The position numbers and the translations under genes were made by a program. The notes under the pieces are model-generated. The model worked only from the letters and a program-made list of their open reading frames with translations. It had not been told where the DNA came from and made no database searches. Of a stretch of DNA of 13,699 nt, positions 7,432 through 13,699 are shown piece after piece; the first letter of the stretch is position 1; each line of letters starts with the position of its first letter. The stretch lies in IMG/VR virus record IMGVR_UViG_2537561934_000011; one strand, written 5' to 3'. The stretch is from a virus. Taxonomy: Duplodnaviria; Heunggongvirae; Uroviricota; Caudoviricetes.

Positions 7432-8880
7432 TTGCTCAACAAGTATAATGGAGTTCCCGTGGATACAGCAGAACATGATGGCAAATTTGCTTGGGCTAGT
7501 TTTTATGAGGCTTTTGCCAACGCGTTACTGACTTGGCGAAATCGTAGAGATGAATTAGTCAAAGGTATTCATCTAATTGCCTCAGGTGTGGAAGGAATGT
7601 CCCATCTGCAGGACAAATCTATTATGGGAGAGATCTTTCCCTTAAAAGACATTTGTCCGTTTACTACTATGGGCTTGTTCAATCGTAACTTGACCGACAG
7701 CAATCGCAAAATTATTGCTGCCAAGCTAGCGAATTTGTTGGGCGTGAACGAACCGATTCCTGACTCCTTTGCCGGAATCCCGCTGTTGAATAACCAAAAA
7801 TCTTGGTTCTTTGGTTATGAAAAGTCACGCGACCCTAATGACATTGAATGCTTGTGGGAAATGTTCTCGCAGGCAATGACCTTTGCGGATAACCAGAATA
7901 CTAACTCTGCAGACTTCACTGCCGCATATGACATTGCTTCTACAGTAATGAATGTCGGTTGGAATCTCACCATGGGGTTGTACTGGACCCGTCCTTGGTT
8001 CTACCCTACTTTAGATAGCCAGTCGCAGTATTACATTCAGACAGTGTTAAACATTAAGATCATTAAAAACGGGGCAAAAGGTCGCTGTAGTGGACAAAGT
8101 TACCTGAGTCTTATGCGGGCGCTGAACGAGGTCTTTACCCAACCAAACTATCCGGTTCATTCTTTCCCAGAACTTTCTTTATCAGCGTGGAATACAGATC
8201 TTAGCCAGTCTAAAGATGAGGTGGCAAATAGAACGTGGAAAGCCTCTTTACTGAATAAAATTAAGGCGTTATGCCTGAAAAAAAATGGCCCTTATTTCAC
8301 TGCTTCGGAGTTGGAAGAAAACTACTTGGACGTATTCAAGGTAGAGCATCCTGAGAGCAAAACAGTTACAAGCTCAATCTACTTTTATCTACAGAAACTA
8401 TGCAATGATGATGAGTTAAAGTCCCTTGAGTCCGGAAATTATGAATACCTGAATTTTGAGAAAAATGAATCCCAGACGATAACTGAGGAAACTGTCGAAG
8501 AGAGTGCGCCGTTGCCAAAACTCACTCACGTTCCTTATGACATCAGTCATCTGGTGCAGGATGGCTGTTTCTTGGAAGAGGCTAAGATCCAACTCACACT
8601 TCAGCGCCTGATCGACAAGAAAAACCTGATATTACAAGGACCACCCGGAACTGGAAAAACCTGGTTAGCGCGACGTCTGGCGTACTGCTTGATGGGAGAA
8701 AAAGCACCTGAGCGTATTAGCGCGGTGCAATTTCACCCGAACCTCTCTTACGAAGACTTTATTCGCGGCTGGCGTCCAGGTAAAGAAGGGCAATTGACGC
8801 TAATTGATGGACCTTTTGTAAATGCAATCAAAACTGCAGTCAATAATCCTACCTCGAAATATGTGGTGATAATTGAAGAG
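7432..8880 (+). pseudogene. mcrB: McrB-like AAA+ GTPase gene, 5' part (long N-terminal domain, Walker A), interrupted by IS1 at 8881
   Basis: Walker A GPPGTGKT (8638-8661), then ARRLAYCLMGEKAP..VQFHPN.SYEDFIRG and the start of Walker B (VVIIEE) before the IS1 end; this tracks the K-12 McrB GTPase domain as I recall it. The preceding roughly 370 residues are unrelated to the K-12 McrB N-terminal domain. Start is uncertain (TTG at 7432, or GTG at 7459 with GGAG upstream). Confidence 0.8.
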
Positions 8881-8895
8881 GGTAATGACTCTAAC

Positions 8896-9399
8896 TTATT
8901 GATAGTGTTTTATGTTCAGATAATGCCCGATGACTTTGTCATGCAGCTCCACCGATTTTGAGAACGACAGCGACTTCCGTCCCAGCCGTGCCAGGTGCTG
9001 CCTCAGATTCAGGTTATGCCGCTCAATGCGCTGCGTGTAATGTTTGCTGATTACGTGCAGCTTTCCCTTCAGGCGGGATTCATACAGCGGCCAGCCATCC
9101 GTCATCCATATCACCACGTCAAAGGGTGACAGCAGGCTCATAAGACGCCCCAGCGTCGCCATAGTGCGTTCACCGAATACGTGCGCAACAACCGTCTTCC
9201 GGAGCCTGTCATACGCGTAAAACAGCCAGCGCTGGCGCGATTTAGCCCCGACATAGCCCCACTGTTCGTCCATTTCCGCGCAGACGATGACGTCACTGCC
9301 CGGCTGTATGCGCGAGGTTACCGACTGCGGCCTGAGTTTTTTAAGTGACGTAAAATCGTGTTGAGGCCAACGCCCATAATGCGGGCAGTTGCCCGGCAT
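8896..9399 (-). CDS. insB: IS1 InsB reading frame (InsAB' transposase by -1 frameshift)
   Basis: Canonical IS1 InsB sequence ..[41 protein letters not shown].. Confidence 0.85.
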
Positions 9400-9593
9400 C
9401 CAACGCCATTCATGGCCATATCAATAATTTTCTGGTGCGTACCGGGTTGAGAAGCGGTGTAAGTGAACTGCAGTTGCCATGTTTTACGGCAGTGAGAGCA
9501 GAGATAGCGCTGATGTCCGGCAGTGCTTTTGCCGTTACGCACCACCCCGTCAGTAGCTGAACAGGAGGGACAGCTGATAGAAACAGAAGCCAC
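9318..9593 (-). CDS. insA: IS1 InsA, 91 aa
   Basis: [43 protein letters not shown].. matches canonical IS1 InsA as I recall it. Confidence 0.9.
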
Positions 9594-9648
9594 TGGAGCA
9601 CCTCAAAAACACCATCATACACTAAATCAGTAAGTTGGCAGCATCACC

Positions 9649-10191
9649 ATTGAAGAGATTAATCGTGGCAATCCGGCGCAAATCTTCGGTGAAACACTCA
9701 CGTTGATGGAAGCAGATAAACGCACGCCGACTGAGGCATTATCTCTTTCCTATCCTAAAAATGATGATGAAAAAATATACATTCCTGAGAATCTATATAT
9801 CATCGGTACGATGAATATTGCAGACCGCTCACTCGCACTACTTGACCTAGCGCTGCGCCGTCGTTTCGCGTTTATCGATCTAAAGCCAGCTTTTAATGAC
9901 GCGTGGAGAAACTGGGTAAATTATAATTACGCAATTGATTTTGACATGTTAGCATTCATCAAATCTCGACTGACGGTACTTAACGATATGCTGGCAAAAG
10001 ATGTTACCTTAGGACCACAGTTTTGTATCGGTCACAGCTATGTCACCCCAGCTATCGGCCAAAAAATCAACGATGCCCAGGCTTGGTATGAACAAGTCGT
10101 TGATACAGAGATCTGCCCTTTGCTCGCCGAATATTGGTTCGATGCTCCAAATAAAGTCGATGAAGCCAGAAAAGTGTTATTAGCAAAATGA
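9649..10191 (+). pseudogene. mcrB: McrB-like AAA+ GTPase gene, 3' part, in frame with the 5' part once IS1 and one repeat copy are removed
   Basis: Reads (IEE)INRGNPAQIFGETLTLMEADKRT..YIPENLYIIGTMNIADRSLALLDLALRRRFAFIDL.., corresponding to the K-12 McrB segment IIDEINRANLSKVFGEVMMLMEHDKRG..YIIGLMNTADRSLAVVDYALRRRFSFIDI as I recall it. Stop overlaps the mcrC-like start (ATGA at 10188-10191). Confidence 0.8.
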
Positions 10192-11309
10192 CGACAATAA
10201 CCGGGAGTGAGCAACATACAGCATCACGTATTCCCATGCGAAATATCTGGATGCTGATGCTGTACGCTTCAGATCTGTTTCGTCAGTTAGGGCGCAATCA
10301 GATCGCAGTAGAAGATAACCCAGCAGAAATCCCCGACCTGGTGGCGACAATCCTCCTTCATGAGATTACGCTGCGCCGACGTCGCAATTTAAATATGGGA
10401 TACCAAACTTGTCATGCGGCCCTGAACCGAGTGAGAGGGCGCATTGACATACTGTATACTGCCAGTCATCAACTACTGGAACGGGGACAGGTTGCCTGCC
10501 ATTTTCAAGACATAACCCTCAACACCCCCCGAAATCGCTATGTTCGCTGTGCGTTAGAACGTCTGGCCTCAATCATAGTGAAACCGTCTTTGGCGGCAGA
10601 TTGCCATTTTATGGCAATATCACTTCGCCGTGAGGGGATAAATGGAGGATATCCTGCCCCCCACGAATTACCCTCAGTGTGGCGTTTTGGACGCCATGAT
10701 GCCGCAGATAAACCGATGGTCGATGCCGCACGATTAGCTTTTGAACTGCTGATGCCGACCGAAGATCAAGGCCAATATCTTTTACCTGCGCCCTCAAATA
10801 ACCTTTACTGGATGAGAAGACTATTTGAAAAAGGTATCGCTGGCTTATATCGTGTACACCTTGCCAAAACAACTTGGCAGGTCTCTGCAGGGAAAGAGCT
10901 GAAATGGGCGTTGAGCGATCAAAGTGCAGGTAGTGCAGAGATTTTCCCGACAATGAAGTCAGACATTATTCTGGAACACAAGACTGCCCAGCGGCGTATT
11001 ATTATCGATACCAAATTTAATTCGATTCTGACAAAGGGTTGGCATCGGGAGCAATCACTACGTAATGGCTATATTTATCAGCTATATACCTACCTTAGAA
11101 CACAGGAGAACAAGACGGATCCGCTTTCGCTCAATGCCGCTGGTCTTCTACTTCATCCAGCTGTTGGCTATATGCTTAATGAGTATGTTGTCACTCAGGG
11201 ACATAAGATCCATTTTGCTACAGTAGATATGACGGTAGATGCTAAAGCAATTAAAAAACAATTGCTGGCAATAGCCCATGATTGTGCAGGAGTCGCGGTT
11301 GATGACTAA
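10188..11309 (+). CDS. mcrC: McrC-like subunit (PD-(D/E)xK nuclease partner of McrB), 373 aa
   Basis: Translationally coupled to the mcrB-like gene. Length and position fit McrC. Candidate catalytic motif SDIILEHK..RRIIIDTKF (D at 11007-11009, K at 11013-11015). Confidence 0.75.
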   Translation: MTTITGSEQHTASRIPMRNIWMLMLYASDLFRQLGRNQIAVEDNPAEIPDLVATILLHEITLRRRRNLNMGYQTCHAALNRVRGRIDILYTASHQLLERGQVACHFQDITLNTPRNRYVRCALERLASIIVKPSLAADCHFMAISLRREGINGGYPAPHELPSVWRFGRHDAADKPMVDAARLAFELLMPTEDQGQYLLPAPSNNLYWMRRLFEKGIAGLYRVHLAKTTWQVSAGKELKWALSDQSAGSAEIFPTMKSDIILEHKTAQRRIIIDTKFNSILTKGWHREQSLRNGYIYQLYTYLRTQENKTDPLSLNAAGLLLHPAVGYMLNEYVVTQGHKIHFATVDMTVDAKAIKKQLLAIAHDCAGVAVDD

Positions 11310-11788
11310 CCATCCTATAAGGCACTGGCTGTAATATAATCAATAGTTTCAATTAAGTAGCTGTTATCCGTGCTTAGTCATCATATGACGCACCACGGTC
11401 TAATTTTCCTGCTCATACATTGATATATCCTTGTCGAGTCCGGAAAGTCGCAGTCCACTATTAGGTATACCGATTGCCAGCACCAAAAGCTTCTTTGTGA
11501 TTATTATATCGGGGAATGCCTATTTTTTAGTGACAATATCAGATAGCAATTAATAAGCGGTGCCGGTAATGGATGTTATGTTTAATGTATAGACACAGCC
11601 ATCATAAACTAAACGTCTGTTGTTCGCTCATAACCGACATTTATCTCAGTTATGGAAGATAATTATGTATGCAGATAATGGGGCAGACAGTCGTGGAGTA
11701 AACAAGGTTTTGCACTGCTTGGCGGCATCGTTATCTTATTTTTAATTATGTGCCTCTTAACATAAGTTGGGACAAAACAGAGACACAT

Positions 11789-11819: not shown

Positions 11820-12010
11820 TGTATTGAGATGTTAATAAAATGTAGACTTGTAATTTGGATATAAATGGTAGAGAAAACCTTTCCCCAAAATAAAAACGAA
11901 CGTCAATGAAATCAAACGGTTGAATAAAGTTGATTTTGGCTAATAAAAAAACAATAAAATAATTTTTATCATTAAATATCAATGACTTGAACTTAATGTT
12001 TTTATATACT

Positions 12011-12172
12011 GTTACGCCACATGGGTTGGACCGAAGCCGCAGACCTGATTGTTAAAGGTATGGAAGGCGCAATCAATGCCAAGACCGTAACCTATGACTT
12101 CGAACGTCTGATGGAAGGCGCTAAACTGCTGAAATGTTCAGAATTTGGTGATGCGATCCTCAAGAACATGTA
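12011..12172 (+). pseudogene. icdC: Displaced original 3' end of icd (isocitrate dehydrogenase), marking the right prophage/host junction
   Basis: In-frame translation ..[57 protein letters not shown] matches the Icd C-terminus as I recall it. No upstream icd coding sequence; AT-rich prophage DNA precedes it. K-12 e14 has the same int .. pin, restriction gene, icdC, iraM, ycgX order. Confidence 0.8.
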
Positions 12173-12195
12173 ATCACTACATGTGTTTAATATTG

Positions 12196-12228
12196 CAACG
12201 GGCGTATAACACGCCCGTTGTTTTATTT
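12196..12228 (+). terminator. Intrinsic terminator of icd: 10-bp perfect stem, 5-nt loop, T-run
   Basis: caacgggcgt-ataac-acgcccgttg followed by ttttatttat, 25 bp after the icd stop codon. Confidence 0.6.
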
Positions 12229-12275
12229 ATGTAGGTATTATTAATAGCATATCGAGCATATTTATATAAAACCCT

Positions 12276-12599
12276 TTACTTGAGCCCATATGGGCATATT
12301 TTTATAATGCAACTATTATGCAAACATTTATTTGTTATTTTGCTTTCTCCTGGAGGACACTCTTGACTGCTTTTGAGTAGACTCCATAAATCCTTGTTGA
12401 ATGGTGCGATGTTATAAATAGTAATAGGATATTCTTTATCTTTAAGGATAATTCCAGATTTAACCGGTGTAAATATACTGCCAGGAGGGAGAAATATAGT
12501 AGATTGATACCAGATGATCATTTTCATATTACCCCATATGGCTGAAAAAGATATGCCGCATGAAGGTTGAATTATCGTGTCAATTACTATCCACTTCAT
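12276..12599 (-). CDS. iraM: IraM-like anti-adaptor protein (RssB inhibitor), 107 aa
   Basis: Sequence [41 protein letters not shown].. matches my memory of E. coli IraM (YcgW). Length and position after icdC fit the K-12 order. Long AT-rich upstream region. Confidence 0.7.
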
Positions 12600-13054
12600 T
12601 TGTTATGTCTTATCCCACGGTATTTAATATAGTTCATTTGGATGTTCATTTCTTTATTTTGCATATGAGTATATTACCCCTTCAAAAAATAAATTAATTA
12701 AAACGATTGCTTATATAAAACAAAATTTAAAGCAAGGAATCTCAATGGATGTTAAACAAAATGAGATTTAGAGAAAACAATAAATTATTCACTTCGTTTT
12801 AGATTTGTTTAGCTATAATGTTATACATTCAAATGACTGAACATCCTGTAATTAAAACATAGCCTTTATGCTACTTTGTGCCAATTTGCTAAACATTATG
12901 GTTGCCTTTTTATATAACGATAATAATGAATATAAGCATGACATGAGAATAAGGTTTCAATTTTTGAGTTATATAGGAAAGGTTTAACCTGTTCCTGGCT
13001 AAAATACATATAACTGGATGATGACTAAACCAAAACACATGTGCGTTAAGTATT

Positions 13055-13088
13055 GAAACGGGCGTATGGCACACCCGTTGTTTTTATA
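13055..13088 (+). terminator. Second, imperfect copy of the icd-terminator hairpin module (function uncertain)
   Basis: gaaacgggcgtatggcacacccgttg followed by tttttataaa. About 85 percent identical by eye to 12178-12230, with one stem mismatch. Confidence 0.3.
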
Positions 13089-13294
13089 AATATATTAACC
13101 GTTATAAAATAACGTATAGAAAGTCAAGTGATCACATTTCAAATATCAATTTGATAGTATTGGCATGGTGATTATTTATGGGTAGCAATAAAAGGACAGT
13201 ATTTATCATCCATAGGGATAGTCTCTGTACTTTTATTCCCATTATGCTAATGCCTTACTGAATTATGAAGCATTTCTTAAGCATCCAACTTTAG

Positions 13295-13699
13295 CTAGAT
13301 TAATGGTTTATTATTTTCTACATCTTCAATATATAAAAGCGTATTATCAATGGCGTAGTAACTGCGTTTGTTATGATTAACATCAGTAACCCACCGGAAA
13401 ACGCCCGCGCCTGCTAGTGTTGAACAGTATTCCCGAAATGTAGATTTTCCGCAAATATGAAGCAATGCGGCCTCTTTTATTTTAGCAGGGTTCTTGGTCG
13501 TACTAACTTTTAACAGGTTCCTGGTTCCTCTTAATAACAAAACCGTGTCATCGTGAGTAATAATTCTGATGTTATCCGTAGCCAGATAATAAATGTAATG
13601 TGCAATACGGTGATGTTTTAATTCTGAATAAAACCAGGAGAAGTTTTGCTCTTTTCTCACTTGCTCAAACATCTTTTGAAAAACAACGACCTGATCCAT
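13295..13699 (-). CDS. ycgX: YcgX-like protein of unknown function, 134 aa; start codon is the last three bases of the window
   Basis: Length and position (upstream of iraM, minus strand) match K-12 ycgX. I do not recall the sequence itself well. The ORF could extend beyond the window edge. Confidence 0.55.
   Translation of the reverse strand: MDQVVVFQKMFEQVRKEQNFSWFYSELKHHRIAHYIYYLATDNIRIITHDDTVLLLRGTRNLLKVSTTKNPAKIKEAALLHICGKSTFREYCSTLAGAGVFRWVTDVNHNKRSYYAIDNTLLYIEDVENNKPLI

Follow-up and report, generated by a model that had tools for sequence, protein, structure and literature searches.

Known duplications at icd and comparable systems

The closest described counterpart of the locus analyzed here is the duplication of the 3′ end of icd through integration of e14 or phage 21 (Hill et al. 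1989 and Wang et al. 1997, to the extent that they are summarized in PMC6379469). A second counterpart is formed by tandem integrative elements that share three att sites at one target gene, as described with TIGER/Islander (PMC10111431). Furthermore, the phage "moron" cargo represented by an iraM-like gene of Stx2 phages, as well as bidirectional terminators, provide partial parallels.

Here, we analyzed a stretch of 13,699 nucleotides (hereafter the window) that is recorded as a virus in IMG/VR (IMGVR_UViG_2537561934_000011), and in which two copies of an approximately 50-bp hairpin module bracket iraM. The locus resembles the e14/phage 21 case in that the target gene, the orientation, and the module are the same, and in that the phage supplies a new icd end with its terminator and the old end lies at the right edge; the inner module (copy 1) together with the icd fragment icdC is exactly this case. 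Unlike it, the outer module (copy 2) lacks the approximately 165-bp coding part and any recombination function, and what the two copies enclose, in place of a prophage, is a remnant of 810 nt in which a single host regulator gene still works. In the portions of this literature that were available, the icd duplication is described only as one of 163–165 bp of coding sequence, and an outer terminator copy beyond iraM is not mentioned. With tandem arrays, the locus shares three att-derived repeats of the same sense (attL, copy 1, and copy 2) as well as the succession of a newer and an older element. However, the older unit is far below autonomous size, is fixed in most of the species, and its outermost repeat is decaying. 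The likeness to bidirectional terminators lies in the hairpin of single-module strains, which is located between convergent icd and ymgL-ycgX, is accompanied by A/T-rich tracts, and folds on both strands; its minus-strand U-tract is weak, though, and the analogy is one of function only.

As argued below from sequence comparisons, the two modules are very probably att-derived direct repeats of stacked integrations at icd, which surround an 810-nt prophage remnant.

Gene layout of the window

The window consists of Escherichia coli DNA and starts with the phage-21-type integrase of a resident prophage (1..1143, minus strand; 377 of 380 amino acids identical to phage 21 Int), next to which an excisionase ORF is located (1133-1369, minus strand). 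The prophage extends to the right up to a McrBC-type gene, followed by icdC at its end. The latter is the displaced 3′ fragment of icd (12006..12173, plus strand; last ~55 codons) on the attR side of the resident prophage. Its translation matches the C-terminus of Icd, and the corresponding stretch of a 99.9% identical genome carries the RefSeq label of a partial isocitrate dehydrogenase pseudogene. The attL of the resident prophage (icd 3′ end, module, and arm sites) lies just outside the window on the left. A genome that matches the window exactly in its int region has the icd stop codon, the module, and TTCCCCAAAA arm repeats at most ~115 nt to the left of the window start, and the strain from which the window originates should therefore also have three module copies.

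Copy 1 (12178..12226, plus strand) begins 5 nt past the icd/icdC stop codon and consists of the intrinsic terminator of icd (hairpin 12195-12221, T-run to 12224) with a 5′ leader of ~17-20 nt. It is followed by 810 nt of non-core DNA (12227..13036, minus strand), for which the annotation was transferred from the 99.9% identical genome. This islet contains only iraM (12276-12599, minus strand), ymgK (12852-12896, minus strand), and the AT-rich regulatory region between the two genes. Copy 2 (13037..13086, plus strand; hairpin 13057-13079), which we regard as a decayed older copy of the icd terminator, is followed by a putative decayed attL arm of the e14 type (13093..13122, plus strand). To the right of this module stack, ymgL (13132-13242, minus strand, annotated from the same 99.9% identical genome) and ycgX (13295-13699, minus strand; Pfam DUF1398 at 1.2e-47) are located; in single-module strains, both are convergent with icd. 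The small proteins YmgK and YmgL have been detected experimentally in K-12 (PMC6001520). IraM homologs are all listed as PF11183 (PmrD) in precomputed annotation, and a direct hmmscan of the window IraM (12276-12599, minus strand) against Pfam-A gave no match at E ≤ 0.01.

Copy 1 as the predicted icd terminator

The module is a Rho-independent terminator of icd together with ~20 nt upstream of the hairpin. In copy 1, a perfect 11-bp stem with 7 G-C pairs and the tail TTTATTTATG yield a fold of −27.3 kcal/mol (z −6.3), and a terminator scan called copy 1 as the sole plus-strand terminator near icd. The e14-borne homolog of the module in K-12 corresponds to the mapped primary 3′ end of icd, which lies in the T-run at 1196422/3 (Term-seq, PMC7815308 supplement); copy 1 and copy 2 themselves have no entry in the K-12 Term-seq tables examined, which are limited and include this supplement. 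The stem of copy 1 was intact in all 7 tallied variants and in the other strains compared, with changes confined to the leader and the loop, and copy 1 is, judging from these variants, under constraint. It is located 55 nt beyond the iraM stop codon on the opposite strand, and its minus-strand tail is weak; a putative additional role in ending iraM transcripts from the other side may be considered.

Two further properties of the hairpin should be mentioned. Its 7-nt loop occurs in two mirror forms, GTATAACAC and GTGTTATAC, with an unchanged stem (compare 12204-12212 of the window). Both forms are found in unrelated chromosomal and phage copies (copy 1 of AR_0006, Lambda_2E9, and C. amalonaticus), which suggests recurrent hairpin-loop inversion through template switching. 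Moreover, in iraM+ strains, the copy-1 leader CTACATGT (12178-12186) could pair with ATGTAGG after the T-run (12227-12235), by which the hairpin would gain an outer stem, and other strains carry the leader CTCCATGT with ATGTGGA at the outer-stem positions. This pairing may reflect either constraint or merely an effect of the palindromic ACATGT.

The module recurs beyond iraM

A repeat finder identified a direct repeat between 12182-12224 and 13042-13084 (43 nt, 84% identity, spacing 860). The ungapped identity of the two copies was 36/43, compared to a best chance match of 23.6 ± 1.0 with a maximum of 27 in 300 first-order Markov simulations of the whole window, in which both strands were searched with the copy-1 43-mer. 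If a 2-nt indel is allowed, the similarity covers ~48 nt, ranging from CACATGTG (12178 and 13037-13038, respectively) to the T-run (12224 and 13085, respectively), and includes the 5′ leader, which is not part of the hairpin, as well as most of the loop. This bears out the preliminary description, in which a module of approximately 50 bp recurring in the same orientation, with a single stem mismatch in the second copy, had been noted; the mismatch is C13063.A13073 on the plus strand. Likewise, no plus-strand ORF of at least 50 aa ends near copy 2, in agreement with the earlier observation that no plus-strand gene ends there.

Outside the module, local and end-free global alignments of 30-170 nt of the flanks were no better than shuffles (p > 0.1). 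A repeat reaching into the icd coding sequence was therefore rejected for the window, and since the flanks differ, the repeat comprises ~48 nt without icd coding sequence. Unrelated flanks had been put forward beforehand as an indication against a relationship between the copies; the flanks are indeed unrelated within the window, but the homology is nonetheless real according to the comparative data presented below.

Across E. coli genomes, the median number of places with the module was 2 and the maximum 4, all of them at the icd locus in the inspected records. In K-12, exactly three copies are distributed over 49.5 kb, corresponding to the e14 attL copy, copy 1, and copy 2; a fourth, more distal copy was not found by nhmmer in these 49.5 kb. 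With the module confined to the icd locus, a dispersed extragenic repeat (REP/BIME-like) was rejected. A curated RNA family was rejected as well, as the best Rfam hit was a sub-threshold match to tpke11 at copy 1 and none was obtained at copy 2. The tpke11 match (a dnaK-dnaJ intergenic sRNA candidate) covers 12178-12248 on the plus strand with 26.4 bits compared to a gathering score of 43 (E 0.006) and probably represents merely a shared terminator shape.

It should be noted that the bare hairpin with its T-run (AACGGGCG-7-CNCCCGTTGTTTT) was present in ~27 unrelated taxa among the 39 contig matches listed. Such stems thus arise convergently, and for this reason the leader and the comparative data matter for the claim of homology. 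That the two hairpins of the window are unrelated look-alike terminators is nevertheless practically out of the question: the similarity spans the 5′ leader and most of the loop at an identity well beyond the chance maximum, the module is found in E. coli at the icd locus only, and the two copies form the exact edges of an 860-bp presence/absence polymorphism. The polymorphism edges together with the beyond-chance identity rule this explanation out.

Presence and absence of iraM across E. coli

Among 5426 complete E. coli genomes, iraM and both module copies were found in 3839, and 1037 contained a single module without iraM and were exactly 860 bp shorter at this locus. In the single-module allele, exemplified by IHE3034 and the type strain (B2), the left flank is icd or icdC and the right flank corresponds to the DNA after copy 2, so that the 810-nt islet and one module copy are missing as one block. 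The two copies are repeats of the same sense around non-core DNA for which a single-copy "empty" allele exists. The absence of iraM from CFT073 has been reported previously (PMC4045071).

In the same publication, iraM was placed "on the e14 prophage" (PMC4045071). A comparison with strains lacking a prophage at icd, which had been proposed in the preliminary description, is informative in this respect: in these strains, copy 1 begins 5 nt past an intact icd, and iraM and copy 2 come next. As iraM and both copies are found beside an intact icd without a prophage, iraM is not part of the current prophage. It is located outside the attR of the latter, in what are probably the last 810 nt of an older prophage.

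The module of iraM-less strains is a hybrid: as far as the loop it resembles copy 1, and from the T-run onward it resembles copy 2, which is consistent with a crossover in the final ~15 nt of the repeat. In all three empty-site genomes examined, YcgX is represented by one and the same protein allele (WP_000373104.1), which suggests a single event. The iraM-less allele most likely arose by secondary deletion between the direct repeats; the direction of this change is addressed further below.

Two additional arrangements were encountered at this locus. In ECMA0423 (icd, copy 1, IS1), iraM is absent and an IS1 end is inserted on the right of copy 1, at a distance of 40 nt, representing a separate, IS-mediated route of loss; due to this IS1-mediated truncation, the locus is uninformative. 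In O157:H7 F8797 (3085-6136), icd and the module are followed by phage-21-type arm sites, int, xis, and truncated replication genes. The junction query had a single match there, to the icd-plus-module half only, and the iraM-ycgX side appears to be missing from this strain; Stx2 phages of that pathotype bear an iraM paralog.

This paralog is an iraM-family gene carried as cargo by Stx2 phages, with 65-71% amino acid and 72% nucleotide identity, the similarity being restricted to the coding sequence. In the Stx2a phage Stx2_EH2201 (5001-5324), it is located antisense between stx2B and the nanS-p esterase gene, a site at which it is present in many Stx2a and Stx2c phages. Morons of this kind possess a promoter and a terminator of their own. 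The islet of the window resembles such moron cargo in representing a phage-borne family and a stand-alone unit that is antisense to its neighbors. Unlike in the Stx2 moron, however, its flanks, including the terminators, are unrelated and the coding sequence alone is shared.

Phage-borne modules and stacked integration at icd

The module was found in ~27 lambdoid phage records, including phage 21, where it follows a 165-bp icd fragment and adjoins the arm sites and int; one of these records annotates it as a terminator. In the phage-borne copies, the homology to the chromosome ends right after the T-run, before the integrase arm sites and int. Furthermore, the icd-proximal module of EcPF40 is identical to that of phage 21. 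The icd-proximal module has repeatedly been overwritten by phage versions, and its sequence alone cannot date events.

These findings suggest the following scenario, in which the order of events is what we infer. Lambdoid phages of the 21 and e14 types integrate inside icd with their own last 165 bp of icd and a terminator beside attP, and integration rebuilds an intact, terminated icd. Because the phages carry the icd end and the module beside attP, each integration adds one copy and moves the old copy to the right, leaving the previous module at the far right end of the prophage with its orientation kept. Copy 1 is the terminator that moved away with the icd fragment when the phage-21-type prophage of the window integrated; in strains without such a prophage, copy 1 is the plain icd terminator. 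Copy 2 would be what remains of an earlier displaced copy and would mark where an older, e14-like element ended on the right, before this element decayed in place down to iraM, ymgK, and the promoter region.

A relic character of the enclosed DNA is in line with its content. Neither an integrase, nor a core site, nor a full 165-bp icd fragment was found beside copy 2 in any haplotype examined. The 810-nt islet contains no integrase ORF and no arm repeats, and a 6.3-kb version of the island, described below, has an e14-type arm and no integrase. Since the enclosed element lacks an integrase, it is a relic and not a functional element. In addition, no intact donor or circular junction (copy 2 left flank, module, and copy 1 right flank) was detected among viral and metagenome contigs, and IMG/VR searches with the copy-2 signature and IraM returned only E. 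coli prophage calls overshooting into iraM as well as the Stx-phage paralog.

To the right of copy 2, and likewise of the single module in iraM-less strains, the first ~40 nt can be aligned with the attL arm of e14, and their distance from the T-run equals that of this arm in K-12, S. flexneri, and Citrobacter. In the window, TAACCGTTATAAAAT..TATAGAAAG at 13093..13122 corresponds to TAACGGTTATCAAAAT..TATCAAAA in e14. Compared to shuffles, the local alignment of this right-flank arm gave p values of 0.0007-0.009 for the B2 version and of 0.057 for the window version. A still older integration layer thus appears to show through in the decayed arm to the right of copy 2. It is worth adding that Citrobacter was rejected as an outgroup for the native icd flank, as its post-terminator DNA is itself an e14-type attL arm that is near-identical to that of K-12 e14.

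A divergent haplotype with a longer island

A search for IraM homologs led to a divergent haplotype of the icd-ycgX interval, which is present in 19 genomes. In its representative R32_14_1F, icd and the module are followed by an e14-type attL arm with TTATCAAAA repeats, a 455-aa ORF, an IS5 remnant, trkG, a separate terminator, iraM′ (74% amino acid identity), and an ariR-like gene. Beyond these genes lie a stretch with homology both to the sequence upstream of iraM and to the flank on the left of copy 2, then 216 extra nt, ATCAAGAATATGT with a second module, ycgX′, and bluR. The island between the modules measures 6.3 kb (5159-11473 of the locus). Its trkG region is 90% identical to that of the Rac prophage and represents a second trkG copy; the 455-aa ORF is uncharacterized and contains two internal repeats, and the ariR-like gene is an extra member of the YmgB/AriR family.

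The second module of R32_14_1F bears the TTAAGTATT signature of copy 2 and is gaplessly preceded by ATCAAGAATATGT, which represents the final 13 nt of icd. Within 20.9 kb, this 13-mer is found only twice, each time 38 nt before the hairpin. A right-anchored alignment to the icd end scored 15, compared to −2.6 ± 3.4 for shuffles, none of which (0/5000) reached 15. As an icd end precedes this module, copy 2 probably represents the terminator portion of an icd 3′ end that was displaced at an earlier time. For the 216 extra nt, no homology was found to the right arms of e14 or phage 21, nor, apart from the last ~20 nt of icd, to the remainder of icdC; with the start of icdC, a soft alignment gave no better than p = 0.02. 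As the recognizable part of icd is limited to its last ~13-20 nt, a classical-core integration, 165 bp inside icd, is no more than plausible for the copy-2 layer.

In the preliminary description, copy 2 had also been considered a possible relic of a duplicated icd 3′ end from a prior integration and excision. With integrating phages carrying the module and with the icd end of the divergent haplotype, the relic of an earlier integration is supported in substance; in place of an excision, the element appears to have decayed where it stood.

The short extent of the repeat, which comprises the module only in the window and, in the divergent haplotype, additionally ~13-20 nt of icd, would also fit a different route. 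The iraM cassette could have entered directly at the terminator hairpin, used as a recombinase core with ~50-65 nt of element-borne homology, and no classical 21/e14-type integration inside icd with later decay would then have taken place. The arm-spacer-arm layout of the hairpin, as in the core of a tyrosine recombinase, agrees with this route, and the extra CG, the AAG for AAA, and the loop GG of copy 2 could be element-borne. However, in the longer island, the module is immediately followed by a typical arm of the e14 type, neither a recombinase nor a donor with such an attP was found among viral and metagenome contigs or in IMG/VR, and the loop GG is missing from the divergent ortholog, so that this feature arose later. 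We consider direct entry at the hairpin improbable, and we favor stacked integrations inside icd.

The divergent haplotype is also instructive regarding the direction of change. For ycgX, iraM+ and iraM− strains are 99% identical to each other, compared to 88% between the divergent haplotype and either of them; for the flank between the module and ycgX, the corresponding values are 93% and 65%, and for bluR, 97-98% in every comparison. The divergent haplotype, which possesses iraM, is thereby an outgroup for the ycgX block, and the iraM− state is most simply explained as a loss, an argument that refers to one recombining region within E. coli only. It should also be noted that the divergence of R32_14_1F amounts to ~20-35% from iraM to ycgX and to only 2-3% in bluR; given this contrast, the block looks imported by recombination.

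Decay and possible residual function of copy 2

Copy 2 has retained a T-run, but its stem is interrupted: on the plus strand, the mismatch C13063.A13073 leaves a fold of −11.4 kcal/mol, which equals that of shuffles (z 0.1), and the terminator scan did not call it. On the minus strand, the same position forms a G.U pair. Features common to all iraM+ strains are the extra CG, the AAG for AAA, and the loop GG, while changes in the stem and T-run differ by lineage (ACACCC in the window, CCCATT in IAI39, and GGACG in the L070 type). In several strains, the T-run contains a G, and in K-12, a double change creates an A.G clash by which the stem is broken on both strands. An intact copy 2 is present in the AR_0006 type. 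Altogether, the stem or T-run of copy 2 is damaged in most lineages, compared to an invariant stem in copy 1.

The preliminary description had proposed that copy 2 might terminate an unannotated plus-strand transcript running antisense through the iraM regulatory region. Apart from its orientation, in which it agrees with the functional icd terminator, and from the T-run that follows its hairpin, nothing in our analysis speaks for this proposal, and we did not retain it. Upstream of copy 2, neither a plus-strand ORF of at least 50 aa nor a predicted promoter was found in the window; specifically, no sigma-70-like plus-strand promoter is located between 12600 and 13037, with promoter hits overall at chance level (12 compared to 11 expected). 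Furthermore, the plus-strand fold is at shuffle level, plus-strand-specific stem or T-run defects are found in most lineages, and copy 2 has no Rfam match. The limited K-12 Term-seq tables contain no plus-strand 3′ end there, although the K-12 hairpin is broken anyway. An antisense terminator is thus very improbable.

A role on the opposite strand, which would be compatible with a relic origin, deserves somewhat more consideration. Copy 2 might have been kept as a minus-strand terminator or insulator that ends transcripts from ycgX-ymgL ~50 nt after ymgL and thereby shields the PhoP/H-NS-controlled iraM promoter from read-through. The hairpin is located 53-75 nt downstream of the ymgL stop codon on the minus strand, where, via the G.U pair, it forms an uninterrupted 10-bp stem of −16 to −18 kcal/mol (z −2.6), in comparison to the broken plus-strand stem. 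Moreover, three independent single stem transitions (window type, IAI39, and L070 type) as well as one T-run change damage the plus-strand reading only, which hints at residual minus-strand use after ymgL; with 3/3 transitions, however, this corresponds to p = 0.125, and as all three are G-to-A, a mutation bias could explain the pattern. In addition, the minus-strand tail (UUUCAAUA) is poor, the terminator scan gave no call on this strand, the A.G clash of the K-12 type breaks the stem on both strands, and the limited K-12 Term-seq tables list no minus-strand 3′ end at this position. Maintenance of copy 2 for this purpose is therefore doubtful, if worth keeping in mind, and copy 2 would be at most a weak minus-strand stop after ycgX-ymgL.

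Implications

The kind of feature described here, including tandem att-site relics, the icd/icdC duplication, and three-att islands, is well known (PMC6379469, PMC10111431), and the locus does not represent a new kind of biology. The copy-2 instance and its link to the loss of iraM, by comparison, appear to be undescribed in the available literature, the classical e14 and phage 21 attachment papers aside. Our analysis corrects the location of iraM, which is not on the e14 prophage and is also found in strains without a prophage at icd. Furthermore, it likely provides a sequence-level reason why approximately one-fifth of sequenced E. coli lack iraM, namely loss between two 48-nt repeats, and this loss is relevant to differences between strains in how RpoS is controlled during magnesium starvation. 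At the icd hot spot, at least three stacked layers of integration can still be read, which helps in annotating prophage boundaries.

A more far-reaching interpretation, which the sequence features allow and which we consider rather unlikely, is that the direct repeats act as a built-in deletion cassette by which the gene for the RpoS anti-adaptor IraM is shed in a single step, as in B2/UPEC strains, and that the outer copy has been re-used as a minus-strand insulator separating ycgX-ymgL from the iraM promoter. If this were true, att relics of prophages would influence gene content as well as the way in which the general stress response is wired.
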